A stretch of DNA of 63,450 nucleotides, counting the filler, from a candidate division NPL-UPA2 bacterium Unc8 (GTDB lineage: Bacteria; NPL-UPA2): NCBI GenBank assembly GCA_003574845.1. It is 4 parts of 4 records of this genome, joined end to end, with 100 filler letters (N's around TTAATTAATTAA, not from the genome) between each part and the next. Parts side by side here need not be neighbours in the genome. Positions count along the whole stretch, not along the records: positions 1 to 20,499 come from NDHY01000014.1; 3 more parts are not named here. One strand, given 5' to 3'. The notes under the pieces are model-generated. The model saw only the letters and a list, made by a program, of their open reading frames with translations. It did not search any database and was not told where the DNA came from. Shown one piece after another: positions 2,747-19,225 of the stretch; within the stretch, counting starts at the first letter, position 1, and the number at the start of each line of letters is the position of its first letter. The position numbers were made by a program, and so were the translations under genes.

Positions 2747-3589
2747 TTACTGCCCTCGCCTTAACCTATTTGAGATGACAACTAATATTGACACTACTAT
2801 AAACAAGACAACCCCGGTAGCAAAAAGAGCCTGACGATGCGGACCATGTGGAGCATAAGCCATCTCCATGGCAACATTGGCGGTAAGTGTACGGATAGGC
2901 CCTAATACGGAAGTTGGGATAACAGGAAGATTCCCAAGCACCATAATGGCGGCCATAGTCTCTCCTATAGCGCGCCCCGACCCCAATACCACTCCTGCCA
3001 GAATTCCCGAACGGGCAGCAGGTAGAATTATATTTTTGATGGTTTGCCAATGAGTAGCACCTACTGCAAATGAAGCCTCTTTATAACTTTTTGGTACTGC
3101 TTTAATTGCATCTTCAGATATAGTAATAATTGTAGGTAAGGCCATTATTGCCAGAACAATCGAGCCGGCTAATATACTAAATCCAGGTGGGCCTAAGTGA
3201 GTTCTTATAAAAGGCACAAGCACCATAAGCCCAACAAAACCATATACCACTGAAGGAATTCCCGCCAATAATTCAATGGCTGGCCTGAGTATATTTCTCA
3301 TTATTTCAGGAGCGACTTCAGCTAAAAATATTGCCGTCAATATTCCCAGGGGGACGCTGATCAACATTGAGAAAAGAGCCACTAAAAGAGTGCCAATTAT
3401 CATCGGGAAAATCCCAAATATTTCGCGTTCGGGGCGCCAATCCATGCCAAAGAGGAAATTGCCGACCCCTACCTCTGCAATTAAAGGCACCCCAGCCCTG
3501 AAGACAATCATTATGATAAAAGCAATGATGACAAACGAAACCATTGCCGCCACAATCAATGACTTCTCAATAATCCATTCTTTAAGCAT
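2747..3589 (-). CDS. pstC: Phosphate ABC transporter permease PstC
   Basis: ELLAGIPSVVYG, GRAIGETMA, ALFATGVVLF. Confidence 0.95.
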   Translation of the reverse strand: MLKEWIIEKSLIVAAMVSFVIIAFIIMIVFRAGVPLIAEVGVGNFLFGMDWRPEREIFGIFPMIIGTLLVALFSMLISVPLGILTAIFLAEVAPEIMRNILRPAIELLAGIPSVVYGFVGLMVLVPFIRTHLGPPGFSILAGSIVLAIMALPTIITISEDAIKAVPKSYKEASFAVGATHWQTIKNIILPAARSGILAGVVLGSGRAIGETMAAIMVLGNLPVIPTSVLGPIRTLTANVAMEMAYAPHGPHRQALFATGVVLFIVVSILVVISNRLRRGQ

Positions 3590-3609
3590 AAAATTTACTA
3601 CTCAGTGTA

Positions 3610-3724
3610 TTCAGGCTGTAAGCTATGTAGGCTGAAGGGGTCAGGGGTCAGAATTTCCCGATCCCCGATCCCTGATCCCCGTGAACAGTCTTTGTGCCTA
3701 ACAGAGCCTACAGCCTAACAGCCT
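3610..3724. repeat. Intergenic short-period repeat mosaic (GGGGTCA, GATCCCC, CAGCCTAA units)
   Basis: ggggtcaggggtcag, ccgatccccgatccctgatcccc, cctaacagagcctacagcctaacagcct. Confidence 0.75.
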
Positions 3725-4594
3725 TTAATCAACTCTTACCAGTCCTTCATCCGCTACCATTTGCTGTCCTTCCGAGCCAAGCACAAAGTCAATGAACCCC
3801 TGCTCTAATGGTGAAAGCTCACCCATGGTCAAAAATAGGAACGGCCTGGCAATTGCCCAGTCTCCCGCCACCACAGCTGCAGCATCAGGCTTAACTCCGT
3901 CTATTTCGAGAGCTCGCACCGTCGGGTCTACGGCAGGAGAAGCGACATAACTGATAGACGATGGATCACCAGCCACACCGGCTCTGACGCCACCGGTTCC
4001 CACCAGGATAAGTGTTGGCACAGGATCTATTCCCTCATGGACAATCTCTTCAAAGGCATCTCTTGTTCCTGAACCTGCTTCCCTGATTATTACCGTGATT
4101 GGTAAATTTTCGCCACCAACTTTGTTCCAATTTGTAATTTCACCAGTAAATATTTTCTTGAGCTGTTTCATAGTCAAGCCTCTTACTGGATTATTCGGAT
4201 GAACTATTGGAGCTATAGCGTCATGGCAAATTACAAACTCTCTCAAGCCCCATCCAGGCTCATCCCTTCTTAACCAGCGAGAAGCCATTCCTATGTGAAA
4301 GGTCCCTTCCCTGGCACCTACGATTCCAGCGGTTGAGCCTACTGAGTGGGTTTCTACCACTACACCAGGATGCTTATCCATAAATCGCTCTGCCAGGTGA
4401 ACAGCCACTACATATACCGATGAGGAACCCCCAACGACTATTCTTCCTGCTGGTAGTGGTGGCAGTGGCACCTGCGGCGTCACTGCTGGTAGTGGTGGCG
4501 GTGGCACCTGCGGCGCCACTGCCCGAATAATCACGCCAATGCCAATAGCTACCAATACCACTATACCTATTGGTATCCACATTCCCTTTTTCAT
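3725..4594 (-). CDS. pstS: Phosphate ABC transporter substrate-binding protein with an N-terminal membrane anchor and Pro-rich linker
   Basis: GGSSSV, GSTAGI, IGMASR, REAGSGTRDAF; 36-bp tandem duplication at 4447-4518 encodes the Pro-rich linker. Confidence 0.93.
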   Translation of the reverse strand: MKKGMWIPIGIVVLVAIGIGVIIRAVAPQVPPPPLPAVTPQVPLPPLPAGRIVVGGSSSVYVVAVHLAERFMDKHPGVVVETHSVGSTAGIVGAREGTFHIGMASRWLRRDEPGWGLREFVICHDAIAPIVHPNNPVRGLTMKQLKKIFTGEITNWNKVGGENLPITVIIREAGSGTRDAFEEIVHEGIDPVPTLILVGTGGVRAGVAGDPSSISYVASPAVDPTVRALEIDGVKPDAAAVVAGDWAIARPFLFLTMGELSPLEQGFIDFVLGSEGQQMVADEGLVRVD

Positions 4595-4749
4595 TCTTTA
4601 TCCTCCTATTGCTACTCTCTTACTCTTTAGAAAAACACCCCGCTTCCACCAAAAATCCTTAAATCATACCATCCTTTCTCACCTCCTTCTTTCGTACACC
4701 TGCTTTTTTAATCATACCGTCTAAAAAGAGATAATCTGAAGATGTTTTT

Positions 4750-5187
4750 TTATAACAGAGCTCCTATAAGTGCCTCTGCTGTGGCATGATTTGTTGCAAG
4801 TGGTATATCGTGAACATCGCATACCCTTAAAAGGGCAGAGATATCAGGGTCATGAGGCTGGGCAGTCAGAGGGTCCCTTAAAAAAATCACAATGTCTATC
4901 TCGCCACTCGCAATAAGTCCAGCAATCTGTAGGTCGCCACCATCAGGACCGCTGAGCATCTGTTTCACCTCAAGCCCCGTCTTTAACTCAATTGTTTTTC
5001 CCGTTGTCCCTGTCGCAATAAGCTCGCATTGAGCAAGTTTGTCTTTATGTTTATTAGCAAACATTACCATATCTACTTTCTTTGCATCATGGGCAATAAG
5101 GGCTATCCCTTTTACCTTTAGTTTCTTCTTAGTTCTCTTTACAACCCCAATCCTATGCCCCTTATTCACTATTCCTTCTGGTATCAT
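4750..5187 (-). CDS. mgsA: Methylglyoxal synthase
   Basis: [58 protein letters not shown]. Confidence 0.95.
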
Positions 5188-5224
5188 GGTTTATTTCCTC
5201 CTTTTACTAATCACTGCATTTTGC

Positions 5225-5337
5225 ATACTGAAATAAATTCAGCACAAGCTTTGCATTGTAATTTTGACTTTTGAGTTTGTTTCGAGTTTCGAGTTTCGAG
5301 TTTAAGCTTCTCTGTGCCTTTGTGCCTCTTTTTCACT
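5225..5337. repeat. Repeat mosaic: CTGAAATAAATTCAG palindrome, TTTCGAG array block and CTTTGTGC units
   Basis: Block near-identical to 28583-28665 and 46040-46120, and inverted to 43350-43423 and 47272-47327. Confidence 0.85.
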
Positions 5338-5341
5338 TTGT

Positions 5342-5398
5342 AGTATACTTTGTAAGTATTACAGCATTATTACAGCAATATTAAGATTTTGATTAAAA
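5342..5398 (-). promoter_or_regulatory. Pho box array plus -10 element driving mgsA-pstSCAB
   Basis: Minus strand TTTTAAT / TCTTAAT / CTGTAAT-N4-CTGTAAT at 11-12 bp period, ending 10 bp upstream of TATACT (5342-5347); matches PhoB box geometry. Confidence 0.8.
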
Positions 5399-5432
5399 TT
5401 TTTTTTCCTCTTTTCACTTAAACCCTAAGATT

Positions 5433-5450
5433 ATTACGGAAATATTACAG
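5433..5450 (-). promoter_or_regulatory. Second Pho-box-like pair overlapping the phoR stop codon
   Basis: Minus strand CTGTAAT-ATTT-CCGTAAT. Confidence 0.55.
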
Positions 5451-6809
5451 GAAGGTTGAAAAGAGTTGATTTTTAGGGAGAGTGAAGAAGAACTTTGAAC
5501 CTTTATCAATCTTGCTCTCAACACCCACTGTCCCACCGTGTGCCTGAATGATGTGTTTTACAATTGAAAGGCCTAATCCCGTACCGCCTAATTCTCTTGA
5601 GCGGGCTTTGTCCACGCGGTAGAAGCGTTCAAAAAGTCGCGGTAGATGTTTTTGGGGAATACCAATGCCTGTATCAGATATCTCAATCTGTATATCTTTT
5701 TCTTTATCCACTGTTCTGATACATATCCTCCCGTTTTTGGGAGTAAACTTGATTGCGTTATCAAGAAGATTATTAAATGCCCGTTCTATCTTTTCTGAGT
5801 CTATCTCTACTTGAGGAAAGTCAGCAAGGAAATCTATCTCTATTCTATGCCCTTTTTGCTCTATAGCTCCTTTAAAATGAGAGATTACGTCCTCTATTAG
5901 CTCTCTAATATTTGCCAGTTGAAACTCCATCTTAATCTCTTTGGACTCTATTTTGGAGAGTCCAAGTAAATCATTTATTAAATTATTAAGCCTTTCGGTA
6001 TGGGTCTCAATAATATTAAGGAACTTACGGCTATTCTTAGGGTCATCGATAGCGCCATCCTTTAAGGTCTCAATAAATCCTCTGATTGAGGTAAGAGGGG
6101 TACGCAGTTCATGGGATACATTAGCCACAAATTCAATTCGCATTCTCTCAAGTCTCTTAATTTCGGTGATATCATGTAACACTGCTACTACACCTGATAT
6201 ACCTTCTTCGCCCTTAATGGGTAAAGCATGAACTCTAAACATCTTCTCCTCAGAAAGGAAAAGAGTTAGCTCTTTGGTCTGGAGCTTTCCTTTATTCACC
6301 GCCTCTTTTAAGAGATTATTCAATTCATTGTGTCTGATTACCTCCCAGAAGAATTTTCCTATTACTTGAGCTTTACTGAGATTGAAGAGCTTCTCACAGG
6401 CAGAGTTAAAGAGTATCAGCTTCTCATCTCTATCAATGGCTACTACTCCTTCAATCATACTGCTAAGTATTGCTCGCATTTCATTTCTATCCTCTGTAAT
6501 AGTCTGGAGCTTCGTCTTTAGTTCCTCTGCCATCTGGTTGAAGGTGCCAGCTAGCTCATCTATCTCATCATTAGAACGAATCTTTATTCTCTTCGTAAAA
6601 TCTCCATTACCTATATGTTTAGCTAAGCTTTTTATATCTTCCAGTGGCTTGGTGATCATTCGGGCTGCCATAAAACTTACGGCTGAGGCAAAAAATAAAG
6701 TTAGCAATACTGCCCGGAAGTTTAAACTAAATATGCTTACAACCACCATACAGATAATTACAATCCCTACATGGGTCAAAAATAATTTCCAGGTAATCTT
6801 AATCTTCAT
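5445..6809 (-). CDS. phoR: Phosphate regulon sensor histidine kinase (HAMP-PAS-HisKA-HATPase)
   Basis: FVANVSHELRTPLTSI, NLLDNAIKF, RFYRVDKARSRELGGTGLGLSIVKH; adjacent to pst. Confidence 0.92.
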   Translation of the reverse strand: MKIKITWKLFLTHVGIVIICMVVVSIFSLNFRAVLLTLFFASAVSFMAARMITKPLEDIKSLAKHIGNGDFTKRIKIRSNDEIDELAGTFNQMAEELKTKLQTITEDRNEMRAILSSMIEGVVAIDRDEKLILFNSACEKLFNLSKAQVIGKFFWEVIRHNELNNLLKEAVNKGKLQTKELTLFLSEEKMFRVHALPIKGEEGISGVVAVLHDITEIKRLERMRIEFVANVSHELRTPLTSIRGFIETLKDGAIDDPKNSRKFLNIIETHTERLNNLINDLLGLSKIESKEIKMEFQLANIRELIEDVISHFKGAIEQKGHRIEIDFLADFPQVEIDSEKIERAFNNLLDNAIKFTPKNGRICIRTVDKEKDIQIEISDTGIGIPQKHLPRLFERFYRVDKARSRELGGTGLGLSIVKHIIQAHGGTVGVESKIDKGSKFFFTLPKNQLFSTFL

Positions 6810-7491
6810 TACTTTCAAATTTATATCCTACCCCTCTAATAGTAACTATTAATTTAGAAGCTGTCTTTAGTTTTTTACGTAGCCTTCTTATGTGAACATC
6901 TACTGCTCTATCTATTATAAAAGTTTCTTCTCCCCAGGCACTATCCAGAAGTTGGTCGCGAGTGAAGACTCGCCCTGGATTTGAGGCCAAACACTTAAAA
7001 AGATTAAATTCAATTTTGGTAAGTTCAATTGGTTTTCCTTTTGATGTTACTTTATGTCTTGGCGTGTCTATGGTTAAATCTTCTATTTGAATTACTTCCT
7101 TTGGTTTTAGTTTCTCTTCAAGTCTTCTTAAGACAGTTTTAACTCTTGCAATTAATACTTTGGGGCTGAAAGGCTTAGTAATATAATCATCTGCTCCCAG
7201 CTCCAACCCTACTATTATGTCAGACTCCTCTCCCTTAGCAGTCAGTATAATTATGGGAAGTGAGGCTGTCTTTGTATCCTTTTTTAATATTTTACATACC
7301 TCAAGCCCATCCAGGCCTGGCAACATTAAATCTAATATTATCAAGTCAGGGCTTTCTTTTTTGACCAGCTCTAAAGTCTCTTCCCCTGTCATAGCTTTAA
7401 GAACTTCATATCCTTCCTTCTCTAAATTATATTCGAGGAGTTCAAGGATATCCTTTTCATCATCCACCACTAAAATTTTCTTTTTCGCCAT
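6799..7491 (-). CDS. phoB: OmpR-family response regulator PhoB/PhoP
   Basis: Receiver LVVDDE...LDLMLP...KPF and winged helix DRAVDVHIRRLRKK...TIRGVGYK; overlaps phoR. Confidence 0.9.
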   Translation of the reverse strand: MAKKKILVVDDEKDILELLEYNLEKEGYEVLKAMTGEETLELVKKESPDLIILDLMLPGLDGLEVCKILKKDTKTASLPIIILTAKGEESDIIVGLELGADDYITKPFSPKVLIARVKTVLRRLEEKLKPKEVIQIEDLTIDTPRHKVTSKGKPIELTKIEFNLFKCLASNPGRVFTRDQLLDSAWGEETFIIDRAVDVHIRRLRKKLKTASKLIVTIRGVGYKFESNED

Positions 7492-7975: not shown

Positions 7976-8713
7976 CTACAATAAACTATTATCCCATTTT
8001 TCTACATAGGAGGGGCTTTTACCTTTTAGAATTTCCACCAGGGAAAGGAGGGTTTTGCGTGCCTCCCCCAGGGGGTAATAGAAACCGCTCCAATTCTCGC
8101 TATCTTCGCCGTCGTGGTTGGGGATAACATTTTTAAATTGGCAAGCCTCTTTTAGTTCTCCATAGGCGCTGCGAGCCCTTTTTTCAATGTTCTCCAGATC
8201 GGCAAGGGATAGGATGCCTTTCTGCTTTTCCGTTCTCCTTAAAAGCTTTCTTTTCATTACCTCGGTTACCAACTCGGGAAGCAGGAGTTTGTCTCCGAGA
8301 CTTTGGAAAAAGATAATCTCCTCCCGGGAAAGAGGAGAGATAAAGACGCTTATTTTTTTGATGTTTTTGAGGGATGGATGAAGCAGCAGGGTTTTGCCGA
8401 TAAAAGGATTACCTTCAAAGAGCATATCCGCTTTCTTTAAACTGTTTTTTAGCTCCTCAATATCTACTGCCTGGAGGTCTCCCCGCACATCCAGGACCAG
8501 GAATTTTTTTTTCTTTTGTAATCCTTTAATGAATAAACGAGAACGAAAGTAGTAGTCCTTGCCTTCTGTTTCCCGGGGACGGGGCGAACGGCTGTTATAG
8601 AGAATAAGTTTATTCATTCTGTCGGCTATCTCGGGATAGAATTTCTCCAGGGCCTGATGCAGGGGGCTTTTCCCTGCGCCGGAAGGGCCGCTAATGACTA
8701 TTAGTTTTCCCAT
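7976..8713 (-). CDS. Guanylate kinase-like P-loop kinase (divergent)
   Basis: LIVISGPSGAGKS, SRSPRPRETEGKDYYF; atypical C-terminus. Confidence 0.75.
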   Translation of the reverse strand: MGKLIVISGPSGAGKSPLHQALEKFYPEIADRMNKLILYNSRSPRPRETEGKDYYFRSRLFIKGLQKKKKFLVLDVRGDLQAVDIEELKNSLKKADMLFEGNPFIGKTLLLHPSLKNIKKISVFISPLSREEIIFFQSLGDKLLLPELVTEVMKRKLLRRTEKQKGILSLADLENIEKRARSAYGELKEACQFKNVIPNHDGEDSENWSGFYYPLGEARKTLLSLVEILKGKSPSYVEKWDNSLL

Positions 8714-9282
8714 ATCGCCTCCACGGAACAGTCAAATATCTCTTCAAGGAGGCCCTTTTTCTTATTGAAACCGTAAAGGTTGGTCTCGGATATTTCTCCT
8801 CCCTTAAGGATGAATCGCCAGGCTCCGCCTTTCTTCTTTATCTTTATATCTTTAATACTACTTGCATGATCGCGATCAAGACCGTCAGCGACCCTTATAA
8901 TTGCCGAAAGTTTGTTAACCATATCTTTCTCTTTATTTTTAAGGTTACCGAAGCCTTTATGTTTCCGGCCGGGATGAGCTTTGCGATGATAACGGGCAAT
9001 GAGGGCAATTAATGTTTTCTCGTGTTCATCAAGATAATGGAAACTAATCTCATTAATCATCTTTTGGGAAACTTTATGGTGTTTTGTCGGCGATGCCGTC
9101 AGGCCTAAATCGTGCAGAAGACAGGCCCCTCCCAGGAGAAAACGGGCATAATTATCCAATTGATGACATTCTTGTAACTGGTCAAATATAGAAAAGGATA
9201 GCTTCTTTACCTGAAGGCTGTGGGGGATATCAGGGGATAGCTCGTTCATCTTTTTCTCAAGCTCTTTATTTTTCTTTTCCAT
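8701..9282 (-). CDS. Stand-alone Ppx/GppA-type C-terminal HD domain protein
   Basis: HSLQV...LLHDLG...HHKVS...IARYHRK...IIRVADGLDRDH; no N-terminal ASKHA domain. Confidence 0.8.
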   Translation of the reverse strand: MEKKNKELEKKMNELSPDIPHSLQVKKLSFSIFDQLQECHQLDNYARFLLGGACLLHDLGLTASPTKHHKVSQKMINEISFHYLDEHEKTLIALIARYHRKAHPGRKHKGFGNLKNKEKDMVNKLSAIIRVADGLDRDHASSIKDIKIKKKGGAWRFILKGGEISETNLYGFNKKKGLLEEIFDCSVEAIWEN

Positions 9283-9299
9283 TCTTTATCTTCCTCCTA

Positions 9300-9425
9300 T
9301 AAATTCCTAAATTCAAATGTCAAATTTCAAATAAAATCCCAATGACAAAACCCAAATTATTTGTCATTAAGGAATTTGTCATTTATTTGTCATTTGAGAT
9401 TTGTCATTTGTCATTGAAATTTCTA
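9300..9425. repeat. Imperfect inverted arrangement of heptamer-based repeats (CAAAT/AATGACAAA versus TTTGTCA)
   Basis: aaattcaaatgtcaaatttcaaa...caatgacaaaa versus tttgtcatt x5. Confidence 0.75.
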
Positions 9426-9429
9426 GACC

Positions 9430-10851
9430 TTAAGGTAATACCAATCCTTTTTTAACCTCGGGGTCGGTTTCCTCCCATAACTTTTTGTATTCCCGATAAA
9501 AGAAATTCCAGCGGGAAGGATTTATATCTTTACAGACAGGAATAAACTCCTCAAATGTTGATTTCCAGCGAGCCTTTTGTTTCTTTTTGTTCTTTGAGTT
9601 AAGATGTCTGAGAGAATCAAGTCTATCGGCCAGTTTTATCATCTTTGTCGACTCACCACCACTTTTTATCTTTTGAAGATAAACATCCATACTCTTGATT
9701 TCCCTGTCCTCTTTGGTTAAATTCCAGACCAGCGAAGCCACCCTTTTGCCAAAATCCTTCTCTATCTTTTCCCGGGTAGCTACCGTCCCTTTTATCTCTA
9801 AGGTATCATGGAGTAGAGCGGCGGCAATAATGTCCGGCTCGCTGACCTTAAGTTCCCCTGCCAGAATAATCGCCGTTCTCAGCGGGTGAACAATATGAGT
9901 ATTCCTGGCATACAGGAGAGCATTTTTTATTTTACCCTCCTCTTTTTTTCTTTTAATCTCTTTCGGTAAAAGCAGAAAGGCGGCCTGGAGGGCCCTTCCA
10001 TCATCAATATCAGGAAAGGCGGCAAAGTCCTTTTCATAGGAGAAGATAACTTCCGATTGTTCTTTAAATTCTTTATTGAACAAAGATGCTCTCCTTTTGT
10101 GCAGCCGGTTGCTTGTTAGCGCTTGCAGGCGGGTTAAATTCCTGTCTTTAAGTTTCTGGCTGTTCATCTTCTGGATAAGTACATCCAGATCACGGATATC
10201 GCCCATTACCTGCTGCAGAGCATGCATATTATTTAACCTAACTTCGGTAATCCAGGGGAAGACGGGCTGGAGAATTTCGGATGTATAGCGGAGTTTTTTT
10301 AAAGAGATTCTCATGCGGTGGAAGGCATTAATGTTTCCACCCTCGGCGTCTTCTCCAGGGGAGAAGAAATTCTTAAAAAGAGTAGCCAGGACAATTTTTG
10401 TCTGATACTCCAGATCCGTATCGGCAAGGGGGATGAGGATTTTTTTAATATCCAGCCTTTTTAAAAAATCCAGCGAAAAAGACTCAACCGCACAGCGGAC
10501 ATCTCCCTCTCCCTGTTCAATGCCTTTATTTAATTTATTCAGGAATAACCTAACGAATTGGTTCTTCCTCCGGAAAATATTGTTTATGATCTCCACCTCT
10601 ACATGAATGTCTCGCAACTCTCCCATGGGGTTCATAATGGTCTTTGGTTTTTGGTAGAGCGATTTTTTTACCTTTGTCCGGGGAAGCAGGCGCAAGAGCG
10701 AGAATACCGCCCGGAGCCTTCTTATGGAAACTCTCAAGTCGTGAAGAGTATCGGCATTTATCTCCTTTTTTGCTCTCTCAAGTTCCTTCTTAAATCCGGC
10801 CTCCCTTTTCCAAAAGGATTCCTCTATAACCTTCAAGCTCCCATTTACCAT
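9430..10851 (-). CDS. CHAD domain fused to a RelA/SpoT-hydrolase-like (Mesh1-like) HD domain
   Basis: CHAD motifs LHDLRVSIRRLR, MGELRDIHV, FHRMRISLKKLRYTSE, LQQVMGDIRDLDV; HD part HPLRTA...AALLHDTLE...IKLADRLDSLR. Confidence 0.85.
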   Translation of the reverse strand: MVNGSLKVIEESFWKREAGFKKELERAKKEINADTLHDLRVSIRRLRAVFSLLRLLPRTKVKKSLYQKPKTIMNPMGELRDIHVEVEIINNIFRRKNQFVRLFLNKLNKGIEQGEGDVRCAVESFSLDFLKRLDIKKILIPLADTDLEYQTKIVLATLFKNFFSPGEDAEGGNINAFHRMRISLKKLRYTSEILQPVFPWITEVRLNNMHALQQVMGDIRDLDVLIQKMNSQKLKDRNLTRLQALTSNRLHKRRASLFNKEFKEQSEVIFSYEKDFAAFPDIDDGRALQAAFLLLPKEIKRKKEEGKIKNALLYARNTHIVHPLRTAIILAGELKVSEPDIIAAALLHDTLEIKGTVATREKIEKDFGKRVASLVWNLTKEDREIKSMDVYLQKIKSGGESTKMIKLADRLDSLRHLNSKNKKKQKARWKSTFEEFIPVCKDINPSRWNFFYREYKKLWEETDPEVKKGLVLP

Positions 10852-11171
10852 TTCTCCATTATCCTCCGGAGGTTAGATATAAGTGCCGTCATTTTTTTTA
10901 TATCCCTGAACCTTCCCTTCTCTGGTTGGACCTTAAGGCTCCTCAAGCTTCTTTGCATAATACGGATATCCTTAAGCCAGTCTTCCTCTTCGGCTGATTC
11001 GCGCTCTGAGATGGCCAGGACAATAGATTCAATCTGAGCCTGTCTCTTAATCAGATGGGCGGAGACCGTTTCTTCCATTAAAGAGCGCAGATATTTCAAT
11101 TCCGATTGGACGGAAGCGGCGACTTTAGGCAGCTCGCTTACCCGGGGTTTCTTATCCCTTGCCGTTGGCAA
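10845..11171 (-). CDS. Hypothetical basic alpha-helical protein in the putative polyphosphate cluster
   Basis: Overlaps both neighbouring genes (translational coupling); no motif recognised. Confidence 0.7.
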   Translation of the reverse strand: MPTARDKKPRVSELPKVAASVQSELKYLRSLMEETVSAHLIKRQAQIESIVLAISERESAEEEDWLKDIRIMQRSLRSLKVQPEKGRFRDIKKMTALISNLRRIMEKW

Positions 11172-11856
11172 TATAATCCTCTATATGCAGCTTCAGTTCA
11201 TCGGACACGCGGCGACTGGAGCGGTTGGCATTAATGGTGATAAAATTATATTTTGCTGCCATCTTGGAATACTCTTGCTGCATTAATCGTTGATATTTCC
11301 TAAAACTGGTAAATATTTCGGACGAGACCCTCATGTCCATTCCGGATTCCCACCAGTCAAAATAGGTTTGTTTTCGCAGGTTTCTTTCAGTTAAAATATT
11401 GAGGCTTACCCTGAGATGGAAGACGAGGTCGGGAACAAGAGCGACCTCACATATATTTTCTACCCATTCGGGGAGAAGACCGCGAACGGTACTGCGGGCG
11501 ATAAGAGTATAGATATATCTATCGGCAAGTATAACGCATCCGGCTTTCAAATTAGGGATAATAATATTTTCTAACTGGTCAAAGAAATCGGTAATATAAA
11601 AAAGGGTGGAGGTTCGTTCGTCAAGAGTATTCCCTTTCTTTGCCTGCTCTATTTCCCGACCGAGAAGAATGGAGCGTCTTAATCCTACATTTACGGTGGA
11701 ATATCCCTTTGCTTCCAGCCAATCGGTCAGGATTCTAATATAGGTGGAGCGTCCCGAACCATCCGGGCCCTCAATAACGAAAAGGTACCCTTTCAGGTCT
11801 TCTGTCTTCACTCCCGGGAGAGATTTCCCGAAAAATTCAAAAGGTTTTTTTCTCAT
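11152..11856 (-). CDS. Thymidylate kinase-like protein with altered P-loop (putative regulatory subunit of a heteromeric polyphosphate kinase)
   Basis: IEGPDGSGRST (K to R), ILADRYIYT, WESGMDM; ATGA overlap with its paralogue. Confidence 0.8.
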   Translation of the reverse strand: MRKKPFEFFGKSLPGVKTEDLKGYLFVIEGPDGSGRSTYIRILTDWLEAKGYSTVNVGLRRSILLGREIEQAKKGNTLDERTSTLFYITDFFDQLENIIIPNLKAGCVILADRYIYTLIARSTVRGLLPEWVENICEVALVPDLVFHLRVSLNILTERNLRKQTYFDWWESGMDMRVSSEIFTSFRKYQRLMQQEYSKMAAKYNFITINANRSSRRVSDELKLHIEDYIANGKG

Positions 11857-12533
11857 CTTTTACTTCTCTGGCGAAAAGAAGGAAGGTCAATTTTTTCTTT
11901 GACGACCTTTCTTGCCATTTCCTGTTGTTCATTTATGGGTAAAGAAGCATCAATTATTTCAAAGTCATTCTCTCCGACAATCCTCTCATATTCCTGAAAT
12001 ATCCTCTCCTGAAAAAGTCCAAAACTTTCCTCTATGTCATCGGATAGCCCCATATCCATCCCGGCTTCAAAATATTTCAGTTTTGTCCTTCCGCTCAGAA
12101 TTCTCCTGACTGCTGTTTTCAGAGGAATACGGCAGTAGAACGAAATATGAGGCTTAATAGCGAAAGAATAAAGATTTCTCACCCATTCCCGGTCACATCC
12201 TCTAACCACATCACGGGCAAAAGCAGTGTAGACATATCTATCACAGATGACTACGAAGCCGGCCTGCAGGAGCGGATAAATCTCCCGCACATATCGGGTA
12301 GTAAAATCTGCAGAGTGAACAAGACTGAAGGTGGTGGGAGTCAGAAGCCTTTTCTTCTTTCCTCTCCTGGTGGCACTTTTTACCATTGGAGATGAGTTCC
12401 ATTCACTTAAGAAAACCTTGATTTTTTGTGATTCCAGGAACCGCTTGAGTAAGAAGTTTTGGGTGGACTTGCCGGCTCCATCCAATCCCTCAAAGACAAT
12501 CAACCTTCCTTTTATACTTTTATTATCCTGCAT
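11853..12533 (-). CDS. Thymidylate kinase-like protein with intact P-loop (putative catalytic subunit)
   Basis: FEGLDGAGKSTQ, SEWNSS, VICDRYVYTAFARD, YFEAGMDMG. Confidence 0.85.
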   Translation of the reverse strand: MQDNKSIKGRLIVFEGLDGAGKSTQNFLLKRFLESQKIKVFLSEWNSSPMVKSATRRGKKKRLLTPTTFSLVHSADFTTRYVREIYPLLQAGFVVICDRYVYTAFARDVVRGCDREWVRNLYSFAIKPHISFYCRIPLKTAVRRILSGRTKLKYFEAGMDMGLSDDIEESFGLFQERIFQEYERIVGENDFEIIDASLPINEQQEMARKVVKEKIDLPSFRQRSKR

Positions 12534-12594
12534 CAAGATATCCTGCTAATGGCATGGGTTACTGAGCTTTTACTCTTATTATACCACACTAATG

Positions 12595-15500
12595 TTACGA
12601 TTTTATGACAATCACTTTAATGTTAAGCTCTCTGCCATCAGTAGTAAGGGTAACAGCTCCTGACTTAGCCGTTGAGTATGTTACTATACCCATTTTTGCA
12701 TATCTGGCAAGAGTGGCCTCTTTTGCGTTAACAGGAAAAAACTCCGCGCAGGGCGACCAGCCATACTGATTGATGGCAAAAGCAGGAGATATGGCAGTAA
12801 TAAATTCCTCTACCTGTTTTTCAGGATTGCCATGAACTGGAATAAGCATCACATCGCCTAAAAGTTTATCAGGATATTTTCCTGTCAATCTCTTTTGCGC
12901 GGCAACGCCTACCTGAGCAGGTAGAATAATAACTTTTTCTCCATAACTGATTCTTAAAACAAGAGAGAAGCTATCCAGACCTCTAACTGTGCTGGGAACA
13001 AGCGCCTCAATTTTCAATCCATCCTCTGCATAAAGAAGCCTGCTTTTTCTAATTGTCTTTATCTGAAGCGGGGCATCCTCAAGAAGCTCTATCAAAGCCA
13101 TATATTCAGTATAAATTTTCTGCGGATGAGGCATAAACGGATTGCTCAACAGCCGCCAGTCATCAAGGAGAATAAGGAATTCTTCATAAGAGAGCTCTGC
13201 CCTTAACATTTCTTCCTTTACCGGCAATACTACTCTTTTGACAGGAATATGCTCTACTACATAAGCAAGCCCACCGATGTTTCCCGGCCTTAAAGAAGTA
13301 ATAATAATATAATCTAATTGACTAATCCGGTAATGTGAGAGAGTTTCTCTTATCGTCTCGCCAAAACTCCACTCTTCTTTTCGTGGGCCGCCATCAATGA
13401 GAATACTTTTTCCTTCCGGAGTAGATACGAGCATCGCATTTCCAAAACCAGCATCAAAAAATACTATCTTTAATAGTGGTTTTCTCGCCATTAAGTAGGC
13501 TGCTGCTCCAACAGTTATAAAAAGAGAAATGACGACGAGCATCGCAAGCAGCTTCCTTCTCTGCCAAAACTTTCTTTTGACCTCCAGGATTTTCTGGAAA
13601 ATCTCTTTATGAAAAATAAAGGAGAAAATTAAGCCATACCAAAAGATAAGCTTTCCTGTCCCATAAGCGCCCACATAGGGAAAGGGAATAAAATCATGCC
13701 AGGTTCTGGCAAGCCCTAAAAAACCCTGACATAGAACAGTGTTAAACCCATTTATAGCCATAGCAAAACCATTGCCAATAAATCCCAATCCAATAACAGA
13801 AAATAAGATTTCTCCCAGCCCTGCCACCCAACCAAGCATTACAATCGCCCCAAGAAGCGGTATCGCTAAAATATTGGCATATAAGCCAGCGATGGGAAAC
13901 CGCAGGAAAAACACTGCTGAGAGCGGCCAGAGCATACCCAATTGAATAGCAAGCTGTGCAAAGCAAAAACGCAGTAAGTAGCGCCCCCGCTTGCGTGAGA
14001 AGAGCTCTATCATTAAATCTCTTCCTGTCCATCGCAGACAGATAAAAAAGGTAGCAATGCTCGCTGCTCCAAGAAGAAGGGTGGCTGTTAAAAACTGCGA
14101 CTGGTGGAGCCAGCTATGCCCGGGAAAATGAATCCAGGCTGGAAACCAATCAAGAAGAGGTGGAATTTTCTCCACTGCCGGCAAGATTCCTCTTACAACA
14201 CTCAGGTGTTGAACTATTCCGCTCAGTGAAAAAAGATTCATCCCTACCAATATTCCAATTAATGGAAAACCGATAAACCCGCGAATGCCAGTTCCCTTCA
14301 TCATAACTACTTTCTCAATCGGCGGAGTGATATAAGCCAGGGAGAGAACGGCGGCGAAGGAAAGAACAAAGGAGACATCGGTAAGCCATAATGGATTAGT
14401 AAAAAGAACGACAACCGCGGAAAGAAAAATAGTTATTCCCACTGAAGTCACAAGAGGCACTCTTAATATATCATAAAGCAGCATTCCTAAGGAAAACATC
14501 AGTGCTGCTCGCTGGGTAGCTGGCGAAGCGCCGGAGAGAAAGACAAAAATCAGTAACCCGAAGCTGACCAACAAAAATCTCATACTCCTCGGAAGATGCA
14601 AAAGACGAGCTGCTCCCATGAGAAGAAGAGCAATGAATCCGGTATGAAGCCCTGAAAGAGCAAGGACATGAGCTATACCAACGGCACGAAATCGTTCTCT
14701 TATTTCACCTGAGAGTCCTCCTCGCATTCCAAGGGTCACCGCCGCCAGGAAAGCGCTTTCCGGATAGGGAACAGTGCGCTCAATAGTTTCAAAGATGCGA
14801 TGGCGTAGCCTCAGGGATAATTTTATTAGTGAGTTCACATCACCTTCACCAAGAAAACACAACTGCTCCGGCTCTCTGATACGGCTGGTAACAGCATAAA
14901 CATTTCTTACTCTCAAGTAACGAGCAAAATCAAAGCCGGCAGGGTTCCTTCGCCCCCGGGGAGGATGCAGGAAGGAAATTACCTCCACACGGTCACCGAA
15001 GGACATTTTCTCATAATACTCTCCAATAGTGGGATAGACTCTTGCTTGAATATAGCCCGTTCTTCCTCTCAGGATTTTTTTCTTATCCTGATAACACTCA
15101 TAGCGAAGAATTTCCATATGCGGGCAAGGATAGTATCTTGCCAAACCTCTTTCTATAAGTTGTGAATTCAAGAGTCTTCCATCAAGCTCCACCACTGCCA
15201 GTATCCTTCCAAACTTATCCAGTGGACGGTTCTCCTCTACGTAGAGAGTAACTTTGCGATGAAGGACCATTGAGCGAGTAAAGCTGATAGCTTCTTTTGC
15301 TCCTTTCTCGCCTAAATCAGGTGCATCCACTCCTAATAATCTCACCACTTTTCCTTCATAAGTAAAGAGAGTATCCCCATCAAAAACACCGATTATCTTC
15401 TGGGTTATTACCTTATGAGGAACTTTTAAATCTAATTTTAAATAGGCATCCGGCTGCGGATGTGGAACAATTTTCTCCGGCTTTATGGTAAGAATACTGA

Positions 15501-15864
15501 ACTCTTCCCTTCTGTCGGGGTCGCGGACAACCGTTCCCAGAATAAGCACCTCTTCTCTATCATTAAGAAAATTAGTAATGTGATAAGGCGAAGAAGTATC
15601 AGTTGCCTGAGCGTGCCTCGCCATTCCCAGGAAAAGCAGGAATAAACAGAAAAATATCAGTGCCTGAGGATAAGGCTTCTCTGTGAGGATAGCTCTCACT
15701 CCGATGATAATAAACAGGATTGCCACTACCCGGAGAGCTACTGAGAAAGACGGGGGGAAGAGAATCCATCCCGAGAGGATAGTGGAGAGAGTAACTCCAG
15801 CAATAAAAGAAGCGCAAAGTGGAATGATGCCACTCTGCCTTGGTAGGAGGGGGGAGTCGGTCAC
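12595..15864 (-). CDS. comEC: ComEC/Rec2 competence protein with inserted thermonuclease domain and degenerate MBL domain
   Basis: RNPAGFDFARYL, GIAHVLALSGLH, SPATQRAALM, SFVLSFAAV, FFDAGFGNAMLV...LIDGG. Confidence 0.9.
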   Translation of the reverse strand: MTDSPLLPRQSGIIPLCASFIAGVTLSTILSGWILFPPSFSVALRVVAILFIIIGVRAILTEKPYPQALIFFCLFLLFLGMARHAQATDTSSPYHITNFLNDREEVLILGTVVRDPDRREEFSILTIKPEKIVPHPQPDAYLKLDLKVPHKVITQKIIGVFDGDTLFTYEGKVVRLLGVDAPDLGEKGAKEAISFTRSMVLHRKVTLYVEENRPLDKFGRILAVVELDGRLLNSQLIERGLARYYPCPHMEILRYECYQDKKKILRGRTGYIQARVYPTIGEYYEKMSFGDRVEVISFLHPPRGRRNPAGFDFARYLRVRNVYAVTSRIREPEQLCFLGEGDVNSLIKLSLRLRHRIFETIERTVPYPESAFLAAVTLGMRGGLSGEIRERFRAVGIAHVLALSGLHTGFIALLLMGAARLLHLPRSMRFLLVSFGLLIFVFLSGASPATQRAALMFSLGMLLYDILRVPLVTSVGITIFLSAVVVLFTNPLWLTDVSFVLSFAAVLSLAYITPPIEKVVMMKGTGIRGFIGFPLIGILVGMNLFSLSGIVQHLSVVRGILPAVEKIPPLLDWFPAWIHFPGHSWLHQSQFLTATLLLGAASIATFFICLRWTGRDLMIELFSRKRGRYLLRFCFAQLAIQLGMLWPLSAVFFLRFPIAGLYANILAIPLLGAIVMLGWVAGLGEILFSVIGLGFIGNGFAMAINGFNTVLCQGFLGLARTWHDFIPFPYVGAYGTGKLIFWYGLIFSFIFHKEIFQKILEVKRKFWQRRKLLAMLVVISLFITVGAAAYLMARKPLLKIVFFDAGFGNAMLVSTPEGKSILIDGGPRKEEWSFGETIRETLSHYRISQLDYIIITSLRPGNIGGLAYVVEHIPVKRVVLPVKEEMLRAELSYEEFLILLDDWRLLSNPFMPHPQKIYTEYMALIELLEDAPLQIKTIRKSRLLYAEDGLKIEALVPSTVRGLDSFSLVLRISYGEKVIILPAQVGVAAQKRLTGKYPDKLLGDVMLIPVHGNPEKQVEEFITAISPAFAINQYGWSPCAEFFPVNAKEATLARYAKMGIVTYSTAKSGAVTLTTDGRELNIKVIVIKS

Positions 15865-16469
15865 GGAATTAGTTTCCCTGATTCATAGTTTTCTATGAGC
15901 GCTTTCTCTATGCTCCGACGAAGTGTCCGGTCAAGGATTTCCACCTGCCGCTGCCATCCCCTTTCTCCTTCCTGTGGTGGGCGGGCAGGCCAGCTAATCC
16001 AGACTGTGCCATCAGCTCTTTCTACTATCCTGCCATTAATTCTCAGTGCATCATTGAAGGTTATGGAAAAATGGGCTCTTGTCCTGGAGTGCCCCGTAAA
16101 TTCAGCAAGCCTGGTTATCTCCCAGCGAAGCTTCCCGGGGCGTTTATCTGAAGACTCGCCACTTTCCACTGCTCTTATTATCTCCTTTTGTAACTCCTCT
16201 TTTAAAACCTCAAGGCAAGGGTAGTACGAGCCTCTGCGAGAGATGTAGGCGGGAAATTTTATTATTGTGCGGCCGGCAAACTCTCCTATTATCTCTATCT
16301 CTCTTACTTGGATCCGGTCATTGAGAATAATTTCAAGCATTTCTTTTCCATTAACTGTCTCTATGTTTAGCTCAGTAACAATGATTCTATCTATCTCCCT
16401 GGAAAAGACAGACAAAAAGCCCGTGATTACAAAGAGCAAAACAATTGTCAACAATCTCTTCTTAAACAT
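15861..16469 (-). CDS. Exported protein with two SpoVG-like domains
   Basis: Signal peptide MFKKRLLTIVLLFVITGFLSVFS; IILNDRIQVREIEI..IKFPAY and WEITRL..AHFSITFND..VWISWPAR..LRRSIEKALIENY both resemble SpoVG. Confidence 0.7.
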   Translation of the reverse strand: MFKKRLLTIVLLFVITGFLSVFSREIDRIIVTELNIETVNGKEMLEIILNDRIQVREIEIIGEFAGRTIIKFPAYISRRGSYYPCLEVLKEELQKEIIRAVESGESSDKRPGKLRWEITRLAEFTGHSRTRAHFSITFNDALRINGRIVERADGTVWISWPARPPQEGERGWQRQVEILDRTLRRSIEKALIENYESGKLIP

Positions 16470-16512
16470 TACTCCTCCTTTACTTTAGTGTAACCATTTA
16501 CTCTGTCAACTG

Positions 16513-16722
16513 CTACTTTTTCAACAGCTTATCTTGCAAGCCTTTTATCTCCTTACGAAGTCTTTTCTCACTCCTAATGTCCGGACTGAACTTTACAATT
16601 AAGTGCATCCCTTCATAAGCCTTGAATCCAAACTTTTCAACCGGCACTATTAATTTCCCCATCCCCTCAAACACCACTACCGCTAATTTATCATCCTCTA
16701 TCCTGTCAATTATAGCTTTCAT
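16513..16722 (-). CDS. DUF3006 family protein
   Basis: MKAIIDRIED..AVV..EG..; 69 aa; usual neighbour of ComEC-like MBL genes; GGAGG RBS. Confidence 0.8.
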   Translation of the reverse strand: MKAIIDRIEDDKLAVVVFEGMGKLIVPVEKFGFKAYEGMHLIVKFSPDIRSEKRLRKEIKGLQDKLLKK

Positions 16723-16769
16723 TCCTCCTCCCTAACAGCCTTCAGCCTAACTGAATAATTACAATATCT

Positions 16770-17657
16770 TCATCTCACGGTCTTTATTCTTATATTCTTT
16801 CCATCACTAACGATGGTAATATTTCCGCTCTGATGGGTATGGTAAACATCTGCTCCGCTTTCTTTCCATCTCTTCTCGGTCTCTGGGGTGGGATGACCAA
16901 ATGGCCATCCTCCAGAACCGCTGGTTATAGCATGAGAGGCTCTTACTAAGGTGATAAAATTCCGGCAGTTTGAAGTATTAGAGCCATGGTGAGGAACCTG
17001 AACGACATCGGCTCTTATCCGCGGGCCGTACTCATTGATGAGTCTATTAATGGCGTCTTTCTCAATATCCCCTGTAAAAAGAAACCTAATTTTGCCATAA
17101 ATTAACATTATGGTTATTGAATTCTCGTTGACGCACTTCCATAAGCTGTCTGGAGGAGGAGAGAGGACCTGAACAAAAACATCCGGACCCCAGTCGAGGA
17201 TATTTCCATCCCTCACAATTCGATAAGATATTTCCCGGGACTTAATTAATTCAAGAAAAGATTTATAAGTAGGAGTGGGATGAATCATGCCAGGGTCCAG
17301 CACTTCTCCTACTTCAAACTCGCTCTCGTTCAATATGCAAATGAAACCTCCTACTCCAGCATCATACAATATCACTTTTCCCGAAGGAATCTGAATAAGA
17401 TGAGCCAGGCCCTGACCAACATCAAAGTAAGTGATGGTCAACTCACGAGGCGGTTGACATGTGTCCTCTCTTACCCCTGTCGGAGTACAGGGAAAGACTT
17501 CCTCGAAGGAAGTATAAAGCGCCTGGCGCCACTGACCATTGAATACCAAGCTCCAGATAGAGGAAGCAAGTAAAAGCAAAACAATGGCTAAAGAGAAGAA
17601 TCTATTGGAACAATTAATATGAAAAAAGTCATTCGAAGTCGTCCAGAACATAATCAT
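16770..17657 (-). CDS. ComEC-type MBL-fold hydrolase lacking the HxHxDH segment (possibly pseudogenising; start uncertain)
   Basis: YFDVGQG, LYDAG, NENSI, FLFTGDIE, QVPHHGS, FGHP. Confidence 0.75.
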   Translation of the reverse strand: MIMFWTTSNDFFHINCSNRFFSLAIVLLLLASSIWSLVFNGQWRQALYTSFEEVFPCTPTGVREDTCQPPRELTITYFDVGQGLAHLIQIPSGKVILYDAGVGGFICILNESEFEVGEVLDPGMIHPTPTYKSFLELIKSREISYRIVRDGNILDWGPDVFVQVLSPPPDSLWKCVNENSITIMLIYGKIRFLFTGDIEKDAINRLINEYGPRIRADVVQVPHHGSNTSNCRNFITLVRASHAITSGSGGWPFGHPTPETEKRWKESGADVYHTHQSGNITIVSDGKNIRIKTVR

Positions 17658-18057
17658 CTAATCCCTTACCGGTTACAGTGATGCGGTCCTTTATCTTCTC
17701 AAAGGTCTTGGGTCCAATTCCATGGACCCTTGTAATATCTTCAATCCTGGCATAGGGTCGACTGGCGATAATTTTCTCGGCCCTCTTGGGTCCGATAAAG
17801 GGTAGCTTCTGCAGTTCCTCTGAAGAGGCGGTATTGATATTTATCTTCAGGGCCAGTCTGAGCCTCTCTCTCTCCTGGGCATCCAGTCTCTCAATGGGAA
17901 CCCTTGGAGTTGCCACTAATGGCCGGGATGGCTCTTCAATAACCGACTTCTTCATCTCCTGAAGGGCAAATAGAGGATACTCCTGTGATATCCGATAGCC
18001 CAGAACTGCACCTCCAGAGATAACAGTCAAGCACAGGAAAATAATTAAGAATTTCAT
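17629..18057 (-). CDS. comEA: ComEA-like helix-hairpin-helix DNA-binding protein with N-terminal anchor
   Basis: KININTASSEELQKLPFIGPKRAEKII...VHGIGPKTFEKIKDRIT. Confidence 0.88.
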   Translation of the reverse strand: MKFLIIFLCLTVISGGAVLGYRISQEYPLFALQEMKKSVIEEPSRPLVATPRVPIERLDAQERERLRLALKININTASSEELQKLPFIGPKRAEKIIASRPYARIEDITRVHGIGPKTFEKIKDRITVTGKGLDDYVLDDFE

Positions 18058-18091
18058 ATACTCACCTTCACCTGGTCTCCGAGCAGCCGTC

Positions 18092-19225
18092 TCACTCTGC
18101 TGGAAAGCGTTGCAGCGTCTCAAGGATGTCTTCTTTCCACTTAAATCTTAGCCGCTGACGCTTTTCCCACAGTTTTTTCTGTAGAACAAATCCAACGACC
18201 AGCGGCAGAGAAACCGTTGGCTCAACGAATGCCATTGCTTTAGTAGCCTGCTTACTTATTTTCCCCCATGAGGTTGCTTCATCAAAAGTGCTGCCGCTCA
18301 ATCCTCCCCAATGCGGAGAATCGGTAGTAAGCTGAAAAGCATAGCTGTGTCCGCCGGTGTTTTTTCCAAATATATAGCCCATCACCACAGAATCATTGAT
18401 AAAATTCTTGGGCACGCCACCGGCAACATAGATTGCTGCTGTTTTTCGTGACTTTAATATTATTTGTGTCAGCTCATAATTATCCCTGATTGCATCAAGA
18501 ACAATGTGAGGCTTGCCCTCTTTTTTTCTTAAATGATAGTGCCCTGTTAACCCAATGCCGATACTTGAGTCATTTAACGCTGGAGAAAAGACAGGTACTC
18601 CCAATTTAGCAGCAGTTCTCAGAATAGAATTCTCATCTTTTATCTCCTCGCCTAATAAGTGAAGAAACTCACGGCTGGAGTAACTCTTTTGTGGCAGCCG
18701 ATGGGCAAATCCCTCTATCCAGCTATCAACTTTGAGGAACTTTTCATCATCTACATATGTATCATAAATACGGTTAATAAAGAGCTCTCTTAAGTGGACA
18801 TCATTAGCAAGAGGAGAGCCAATATAATGCTTATGCCCCAATGCCTGGTAGATATCCTGATAGAAAATTGCTCCGGTGGAAACGATTGTATCCACAATGC
18901 CATAAGCAATCATATCCCTGATAACTTCTCTCAAACCCCCGGCAATAAGGGGTCCTGCTAATCCAAGCAGGACTGTAGGGCGTGCTTTATCCTGCAACAT
19001 ATTTTTATATACTGAGGCGCACTGACCAATTGCTCGCGCCTGAATAGACATAGACATATAAGAGGTAACCAGGTCATCTATTGTCCTGACTTCAATTAGG
19101 TCAACGGACTTAACCTGCTTTGAAAGCAATTTTCTCTTCTGGCTCCGCTGCGACTTGTTTAGCTTCTCCTCCATACAGATTTTTTCCAGCTCACTGCACC
19201 CTGGATAACTCTCTTTTTTCTTCAT
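18092..19225 (-). CDS. Deoxyhypusine synthase-like protein (possibly a homospermidine synthase)
   Basis: IVSTGA, RIYDT, PALNDSSIG, GGVPKNF, WGGLSGSTFDEATSWGK. Confidence 0.88.
   Translation of the reverse strand: MKKKESYPGCSELEKICMEEKLNKSQRSQKRKLLSKQVKSVDLIEVRTIDDLVTSYMSMSIQARAIGQCASVYKNMLQDKARPTVLLGLAGPLIAGGLREVIRDMIAYGIVDTIVSTGAIFYQDIYQALGHKHYIGSPLANDVHLRELFINRIYDTYVDDEKFLKVDSWIEGFAHRLPQKSYSSREFLHLLGEEIKDENSILRTAAKLGVPVFSPALNDSSIGIGLTGHYHLRKKEGKPHIVLDAIRDNYELTQIILKSRKTAAIYVAGGVPKNFINDSVVMGYIFGKNTGGHSYAFQLTTDSPHWGGLSGSTFDEATSWGKISKQATKAMAFVEPTVSLPLVVGFVLQKKLWEKRQRLRFKWKEDILETLQRFPAE

Follow-up and report, generated by a model that had tools for sequence, protein, structure and literature searches.

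In a 63,450-nucleotide stretch of DNA from the candidate division NPL-UPA2 bacterium Unc8 (GCA_003574845.1), called the window here, the open reading frame (ORF) 12595-15864 on the minus strand encodes a ComEC/Rec2 protein with a staphylococcal-nuclease (SNase) domain inside its oligonucleotide/oligosaccharide-binding (OB) fold. This is a rare ComEC variant, undescribed in the literature searched, and its residue pattern indicates that the grafted SNase is probably active. The metallo-beta-lactamase (MBL) fold domain at the C-terminus has lost its metal-binding motifs, and by the motifs of the relatives the real peculiarity of the clade is such a dead MBL in cis paired with a live MBL in trans. 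We give a somewhat better than even chance to the reading, drawn from sequence, model and analogy, that the insert is an extracytoplasmic accessory entry nuclease, which would cut incoming DNA in addition to the trans MBL, the two being partly redundant.

The SNase domain in the OB fold of ComEC

The profile search of the 996-kb, 94.7%-complete genome gave only one match to the Competence domain, which is this ORF (Pfam Competence at amino acids (aa) 377-531; E 1.2e-33, 117.1 bits against a cut-off of 23). DUF4131 is split by the insert into two stretches (E 2.2e-13, 50.7 bits against 31.6), and Lactamase_B is weakly matched at aa 805-897 (E 9.3e-6, 26.1 bits against 22.7). The protein matches the solved full-length ComEC 30bt_A by sequence with E 1.7e-41, and it scores under the cut-off of the NCBIfam ComEC_Rec2 equivalog TIGR00361 (143.3 against 190.05 bits). 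We built an AlphaFold2 model of the full-length protein on a 37-sequence alignment, which reached a mean predicted local distance difference test score (pLDDT) of 88.8 and a predicted template-modelling score (pTM) of 0.81. In the model, helices 10-31, 38-60 and 65-87 are followed by strands 101-112 and 123-135, an alpha/beta unit, strands 271-276 and 291-300, and the remaining OB fold. Three architectural features, the Competence domain, the N-terminal helices and the OB fold, are as expected of ComEC/Rec2 according to the profiles and the model. The parts of the gene are as follows.

12595..15864, minus strand: ComEC/Rec2 gene, 1089 aa (Pfam, genome scan)
15604..15837, minus strand: three N-terminal helices (aa 10-87) ahead of the OB fold (model; same in solved ComEC)
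15433..15579, minus strand: OB fold part 1 (aa 96-144; strands 101-112 and 123-135; Pfam, alignment, model)
15073..15444, minus strand: SNase domain in the OB loop between strands 2 and 3 (aa ~141-264; Pfam, PDB match, model)
14830..15072, minus strand: OB fold part 2 (aa 265-345; Pfam, alignment, model)
13489..14829, minus strand: Competence (channel) transmembrane domain (aa 346-792; Pfam, model, 30bt_A alignment)
12598..13482, minus strand: C-terminal MBL-fold domain with all metal-binding motifs lost, a putative pseudo-nuclease (alignments, Foldseek to 9ic4)
13270..13299, minus strand: TSLRPGNIGG (motif 2; aa 856-865) where T-H-x-D-x-D-H-I-G-G is expected (alignment to 30bt_A)

The boundaries of the insert were set by the stretch that is missing from the related protein P0005. 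Within it, Pfam PF00565 matches aa 174-246 (E 7.7e-10, 39.6 bits against a cut-off of 21), and a phmmer search of the PDB aligned aa ~157-262 with residues 14-128 of the S. aureus thermonuclease chain (E 5e-14). The modelled insert has a pLDDT of ~87-95 and is flanked by OB strands 123-135 and 271-276; it superposes on SNase crystal structures with a root-mean-square deviation of 1.6-2.0 A over 100-106 columns, at 33-34% identity and a TM-score of ~0.7 on the target (Foldseek). The sequence-only reading had described a thermonuclease signature in the OB region (VFDGDT, VRLLGVDAPD, DKFGRILA and LNSQLIERGLA, aa 152-250, nt 15115-15411), and both the strings and the domain were found there.

To these data we added Logan contigs from four groundwater-metagenome runs of two studies, compared over 12500-18200 of the window. 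Single contigs of 8899, 2086, 9062 and 1708 nt, which come from the four runs, cross both insert junctions with 0-1 gaps, which was one of the checks proposed earlier. The same architecture recurs at the same place in independent assemblies (at least 14 independent sequences), from ~31-40% to 99% identity over the insert region, so that the proposed search for SNase plus Competence architectures also gave a positive answer. An assembly chimera or mis-join is ruled out by the junction-spanning contigs, this recurrence, the continuous frame and the confident fold, and we see practically no chance that the fusion is an artefact of this kind.

At the other end of the protein, near position 12625, all four runs are one base short compared with the window; ComEC then ends with ...GRELTLK at 1083 aa, as in the related protein P0001, where the window reads ...GRELNIKVIVIKS. 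The last 6-9 residues of the window protein are, by this comparison, probably an indel error or a variant.

For the active site, we applied the residue numbering of S. aureus SNase to insert positions 21, 35, 40, 41, 43 and 87, with Asp21 and Asp40 as the Ca2+ ligands. The available text of PMC8436206 describes the roles of Ca2+, Arg35, Arg87 and Glu43 in SNase, whose products carry 3'-phosphate and 5'-OH ends. In the alignment to the S. aureus enzyme, D21, R35, D40 and R87 are kept in the window insert, T41 is replaced by Ala and the general base E43 by Asp. The earlier statement that the catalytic Asp and Arg positions are kept is therefore right for these four residues; the general base is not strictly kept. 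None of the 13 insert-bearing sequences of alignment A1 lacks D21, R35 or R87; at position 40 they have D (5 sequences) or N (8), and at position 43 E (11) or D (2, namely the window and P0002). The inserts of two Elusimicrobiota loci, L004 and L005, have N at position 40 and E at position 43. For comparison, we collected free SNase domains from the representative search described below (160 domains from 134 proteins); D (110) and N (40) are both frequent at position 40, so N40 is an ordinary natural state, while position 43 has E in 142 domains and D in just 5.

The insert is under purifying selection. Between the window and the same-genus genome G001, its dN/dS is 0.18 (Nei-Gojobori), lower than those of the MBL-like domain (0.23) and of the gene as a whole (0.26). 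In three comparisons its identity is 85, 65 and 38%, where the other domains have 80-96, 69-76 and 31-49%. Its divergence keeps pace with that of the other domains, which together with the low dN/dS is the pattern of a functional domain.

We infer from the conserved residues that the insert is an active Ca2+-dependent nuclease. Several points weigh against this and against the role that we propose. The PF00565 match covers only profile positions 2-78 of 107, and the C-terminal part is divergent. Asp at position 43, found in the inserts of the window, P0001 and P0002/G001, is rare among free SNases, and the Glu43-to-Asp change cuts the kcat of S. aureus SNase by orders of magnitude. Besides, the insert has been lost at least five times, including in P0005 at 78% identity, which makes it dispensable.

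The partial match and the Asp43 substitution would also be expected of a catalytically silent SNase-fold module, comparable to the eukaryotic Tudor-SN repeats, that gives the OB fold an extra DNA-binding surface; SNase is itself an OB-type fold, and the ComEC OB fold is a DNA-binding handle according to the available part of PMC12455585. The constancy of D21, R35 and R87 in 13 of 13 sequences across ~31-40% identity, with only D/N at position 40 and E/D at position 43, speaks against this explanation. Such a residue pattern is that of free, presumably active SNases and would be needless for binding alone, which makes a silent module improbable.

The MBL nuclease in cis and in trans

The model of the C-terminal domain matches the ComEC nuclease domain 9ic4 (Foldseek E 1.1e-16, TM-score 0.84 on the target; E 8.4e-16 by sequence). 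It was reported from the sequence that TSLRPGNIGG stands in place of HxHxDH; this held, and the string aligns to THPDADHIGG of 30bt_A. The other MBL motifs are lost too, and the replacements are listed here from 30bt_A to the window ComEC.

Motif 2: THPDADH to TSLRPGN (H, D, D, H to S, R, G, N)
GQGDA to GFGNA
SADIE to PAQVG
PHHGS to PVHGN

The catalytic motif of ComEC is H598-x-D600-x-D602-H603, where alanine changes inactivate the enzyme (available text of PMC12455585). We aligned 42 ComEC sequences, consisting of 34 clade members, 5 canonical outgroup sequences and 3 rows without data. Motif 2 is lost in all 34 clade members with data, about 20 of which lack the SNase insert, and the outgroup has H-x-[HD]-x-D-H in 4 of 5 and H-x-Q-x-D-H in one. 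Judging from these motifs, the cis MBL domain is catalytically dead, and its presence in this state in about 20 insert-less members indicates that the MBL loss is not tied to the gain of SNase. As a separate observation, some clade members carry extra MBL copies (P0011, L012, L006, L009); in the 1319 aa of P0011 there are two MBL-like domains, both degenerate, and an intact MBL ORF lies directly after ComEC in L006 (10907-12319) and L009 (2825-3799).

Two genes upstream of ComEC there is a second ORF of the ComEC nuclease type.

16770..17657, minus strand: stand-alone, N-terminally anchored ComEC-type MBL gene, 295-aa allele (homology, alignment to P0175)

It has a hydrophobic N-terminus and matches just the second half of the ComEC C-terminal domain. 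The product is 98% identical to P0175 (339 aa, intact), which aligns end to end with the crystal structure 9ic4 (E 2.8e-38), better than the C-terminal domain of ComEC itself. In the window, an in-frame deletion of 132 nt (44 aa) at 17353|17354 removes SHPHSDHI and thus the HxHxDH motif. The gene is intact in the same-genus genome G001, where the order is DHS, ComEA, MBL, SpoVG-like and ComEC, and both P0175 and the G001 protein keep all metal-binding motifs. An intact anchored ComEC-type MBL ORF also lies beside ComEC in 6 of 13 related loci, both insert-bearing (L004, L005) and insert-less (L006, L009, L013, L014), with the motifs GQGDA, HPHSDHFGG and similar, TGDIE, HHGS and GHP. No stand-alone MBL was found in the available flanks of L008 and L012; the other five of the remaining seven loci are short or cut. 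By these alignments, the MBL nuclease has moved in trans within the clade and has not been replaced.

The metagenome runs contain more than one allele of this gene. In all four, contigs that end at 17353|17354 run on into sequence missing from the window, which encodes IIASHPHSDH on the minus strand and so represents the undeleted allele. In runs X1 and X2, a 60-nt unitig bridges the 132-nt deletion at a depth of ~13, compared with 20-28 nearby, and a second in-frame skip of 147 nt (16838 to 16986; depth 14-16) removes the HHGS-to-GHP region; these depths come from contigs and unitigs and are rough values, not frequencies. A scan of metagenome contigs gave three near-identical contigs (L084-L086), of which L084 and L085 have the 132-nt deletion and L084 has both. 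Since deleted and undeleted alleles occur in the runs, the trans MBL is polymorphic for putative loss-of-function alleles in the population.

The sequence-only reading had taken the locus as a nuclease swap, in which the SNase does the job of the cis MBL, the degradation of the non-transported strand, and Ca2+/SNase replaces Mn2+/MBL chemistry. One part of it stood: the OB-inserted SNase is real, and the cis MBL is dead by its motifs. Also in favour of a swap, the trans MBL lacks HxHxDH in this assembly, L084 and L085 (in L084 also the HHGS/GHP region). The unitigs that bridge the deletions are at about half the local depth in X1 and X2, and in cells with deleted alleles the SNase would be the only intact nuclease of the locus. 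The other part did not stand. The MBL is dead clade-wide, also in members without insert; insert-bearing L004, L005 and G001 keep an intact trans MBL, the undeleted allele is present in all four runs, the insert has been lost repeatedly, as in P0005, and Glu43 is Asp in the window lineage. A true swap is therefore unlikely in our estimation.

We regard as equally doubtful a hand-over in progress, in which the OB-fold SNase alone can supply the nuclease step of import, so that the population is discarding its trans MBL. If this were true, the two in-frame deletions, which remove trans MBL motifs 2 and 5 and are each at about half depth, would be the discarding itself, and import would go through a Ca2+-dependent SNase (3'-phosphate/5'-OH) and not through the MBL of every studied ComEC (5'-phosphate/3'-OH). 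SNase prefers high pH and Ca2+, and its chemistry might then suit Ca-rich, high-pH water.

Distribution, history and gene neighbourhood

A word-indexed search returned 26 proteins, 8 of which contain PF00565, PF13567 and PF03772 together; the insert is cleanly absent from P0010 and from P0005, a protein of 970 aa with 78% identity in the aligned half. An exhaustive search with aa 90-345 against 1.84 billion representatives gave 6756 matches at E <= 0.001, of which the best 150 were listed. We scanned 26 of these 150 with Pfam, choosing long ones; 6 have SNase inside DUF4131 (P0027, P0028, P0029, P0030, P0034 and P0037, three of them fragments), 8 are ComECs of the same clade without insert, and 12 are unrelated SNase proteins. 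The representative of the window protein's own 50% cluster is the insert-less P0005. In the ESM Atlas, a lead only, the best score (0.77) was to plain DUF4131 clusters, and no large cluster with the SNase-ComEC architecture was seen.

Among genome contigs, the closest loci are from Elusimicrobiota metagenome-assembled genomes (MAGs), and the insert is in 2 of the 13 examined (L004 and L005). Some SNase match occurs in 127 of 251 sampled Elusimicrobiota species genomes, and SNase lies inside an open frame of more than 1000 aa in at least 3 of the 251 (G041, G042 and G134; 150 of 205 match rows listed). The Pfam SNase search of the window's own genome missed the ComEC insert; such searches can overlook this domain, and 3 of 251 is therefore a lower bound. 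The architecture is rare by these counts, with ~7 clusters in the 1.84 billion representatives and at least 3 carriers in the 251 Elusimicrobiota genomes.

In Elusimicrobiota genomes G041-G291, many of the SNase matches fall in ORFs of 150-190 aa and cover profile positions 2-78, which is also the truncated span seen in the ComEC insert. These short ORFs are a candidate source family of the insert. Besides, the window's genome has only one other SNase-like match, on contig C24 (L003:1441-2142; 20 bits, below the cut-off), which lies in the C-terminal half of a 233-aa ORF without a D-x-P-E motif; by eye, the start of this ORF resembles a DNA methyltransferase end.

To trace the insert, we made a ComEC tree with the insert columns removed (40 rows, 966 columns) and a poorly resolved tree of the SNase domain alone (92 columns; 14 inserts together with 90 free domains). 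On the ComEC tree, the insert state needs at least 6 changes, with P0005 inside the window subclade at an SH-type approximate likelihood ratio test (SH-aLRT) value of 99. Monophyly of the 14 insert-bearing ComECs was rejected (delta lnL 833; p-AU, from the approximately unbiased test, 6e-6). On the domain tree, holding all inserts together gave a likelihood above that of the free search and was not rejected (p-AU 0.705). The simplest history that the trees suggest is a single insertion followed by several clean losses; passage of the insert between comEC genes by recombination is a further history that they allow.

In the window's lineage (41 genomes, many incomplete), only G001 of the same genus has this ComEC, at 86% identity; in genomes of the same order and phylum, just the OB part was matched, weakly, and the open frames are 503-565 aa long. 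The window subclade is nested among Elusimicrobiota-labelled sequences in the ComEC tree. This ComEC thus belongs to a clade centred on Elusimicrobiota, and the window's genus probably acquired it laterally.

Around ComEC and the stand-alone MBL gene, two further features belong to the locus.

17629..18123, minus strand: ComEA (helix-hairpin-helix DNA receptor), overlapping the start of the stand-alone MBL gene (Pfam)
15861..16469, minus strand: SpoVG-like protein, 202 aa, with a hydrophobic N-terminus and two SpoVG-like stretches (Pfam, homology)

The stop of the SpoVG-like gene overlaps the ComEC start by 4 nt, and the synteny of the two is kept only in close relatives. The protein has 8 homologues in all (64-100% identity), several of them on the ComEC contigs of P0003, P0004 and P0005; a possible role is that of an exported accessory which binds DNA for this ComEC. 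Upstream of its gene there is a 300-nt gap (16470-16769) with low G+C (0.36-0.39) and a GC skew down to -0.59. The promoter/terminator scan gave consensus matches only (19, compared with 13.5 expected), and no operon boundaries were drawn from them.

In the Elusimicrobiota loci, the order is aroE, ComEC, a PD-(D/E)XK nuclease gene and MBL, with aconitase, tmk and holB further on. The PD-(D/E)XK gene between ComEC and the stand-alone MBL is found in both insert-bearing loci (L004:11148-12974 and L005:12140-13051). L004, which is from an Endomicrobia MAG, also has an intein with a LAGLIDADG domain inside a UDP-glucose dehydrogenase gene (3287-6070).

Downstream of the window ComEC, the region 7976-12536 (minus strand) holds two tandem dTMP-kinase paralogues directly after ComEC, a 108-aa ORF of no family, a CHAD-HD (SpoT-like hydrolase) protein, a Ppx/GppA C-terminal-like ORF and a guanylate-kinase-like ORF, an odd cluster of nucleotide and polyphosphate flavour between ComEC and the Pho genes. 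The latter (pstSCAB, phoR and phoB) occupy 995-7491, 5-11 kb downstream of ComEC and on its strand. These neighbours, together with an alkaline phosphatase after the stand-alone MBL in L005 (14477-15777, split in two ORFs; only L005 has one nearby), would fit a nutritional role, in which SNase-ComEC degrades and imports DNA mainly for phosphate or nucleotides and is coupled to the Pho regulon and the nucleotide kinases. But the neighbourhood is unconserved: no pst/pho genes occur in the 13 related loci, and the Pho arrangement is absent from the G001 contig, which has other genes downstream. A conserved Pho linkage was rejected for this reason, and little is left of the phosphate-scavenging link that had been suggested from the adjacent Pho genes. 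The tmk of L004 and L005 is an ordinary tmk-holB pair 5-6 kb away. Nucleotide auxotrophy as a reason for DNA uptake was rejected too, because NrdD, PurH and PyrF are encoded, and DprA points to recombination of imported DNA; a class I/II ribonucleotide reductase was not found in the 94.7%-complete genome. We hold little belief in the nutritional role. Import for recombination is plausible, since DprA, ComEA, three PilB-like and two PilT-like ATPases are all encoded.

Proposed role and known systems

The accessory entry nuclease that we favour would have arisen as follows. An SNase was inserted once into loop II-III of the OB fold, on the outer side of the membrane, and it would now be found in a minority of the clade. 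The three helices before the OB fold, as in solved ComEC, place this fold and the insert outside the cytoplasm. In canonical ComEC, the OB fold is periplasmic, binds DNA tightly and boosts the activity of the MBL domain (available text of PMC12455585), and in the cryo-electron microscopy structure it helps to position the nuclease active site at the channel entrance (available text of PMC13539106). As the OB fold binds DNA at the channel entrance, a nuclease on one of its loops would sit where DNA is held just before entry. This placement at the channel mouth is inferred from the model and from analogy; held there, the insert would cut incoming DNA in a Ca2+-dependent manner, the working MBL nuclease would be supplied by the separate membrane-anchored protein encoded beside ComEC, and the dead cis MBL would have been retained as a structural part of the channel mouth. 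Such a division of labour between insert and trans MBL may include redundancy, which would explain why P0005 could lose the insert and half of the population the MBL site.

Compared with canonical ComEC/Rec2 (30bt, full length, from Neomoorella carbonis; 9ic4, the nuclease domain from M. glycerini), the window protein has the same helices, OB fold, channel and MBL fold. It differs in the ~125-aa SNase in an OB loop and in the absence of HxDxDH, GQGDA, xDxE and HHGS, with an intact MBL coming from a separate gene in the relatives.

Separate membrane-associated entry nucleases of competent bacteria are EndA of S. pneumoniae and NucA of B. subtilis. The role proposed here resembles theirs, that of an extracytoplasmic membrane-associated nuclease which cuts incoming DNA for ComEC, but they are separate proteins of other folds, whereas here the SNase family is used, covalently within the ComEC OB fold. 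Active/inactive MBL pairs are also familiar from CPSF73/CPSF100 and IntS11/IntS9; the likeness is that an inactive MBL-fold protein is retained next to its active paralogue, and it goes no further. The Foldseek matches to Integrator chains reflect the shared fold only.

SNases tied to DNA uptake or use have been described in archaea. A membrane-anchored thermonuclease, MMJJ_16440, is needed for transformation in Methanococcus maripaludis (available text of PMC10133366), and haloarchaeal SNase lipoproteins such as Hvo_1477, some fused to a ComEC-like MBL, have no channel (available text of PMC3929857). Like the window insert they are surface-anchored SNases associated with DNA uptake or extracellular DNA use; they are archaeal and, in the portions available, have neither a Competence domain nor an OB insertion, while here the partner is a bacterial channel.

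In the available text of a ComEC architecture survey, five extra domains are given and SNase is not among them, although its 2016 RefSeq set predates these MAGs (PMC6299819). The available text on comEC of Endomicrobium does not use the word nuclease (PMC8809381). Within the accessible text of the literature linking ComEC with SNase-type nucleases or Elusimicrobia, no description of the SNase-in-ComEC architecture was found. Database pipelines already tag the Pfam domains, and the proteins are named just "ComEC/Rec2 family".

ComEC is the universal gate for transforming DNA, and for the canonical MBL the cutting of the strand that is not imported was clarified only in recent work. This clade would give three natural variants of the step, a dead cis MBL that is kept, a live MBL in a separate gene, and, in a few of the lineages, an unrelated Ca2+-type nuclease on the OB fold. 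P0005 without the insert and the alleles of the window population with and without the trans MBL active site are near-isogenic natural controls. With these variants and controls, it would be possible to test which nuclease is required for import, the importance of its end chemistry, and the structural role of the MBL fold at the channel mouth.

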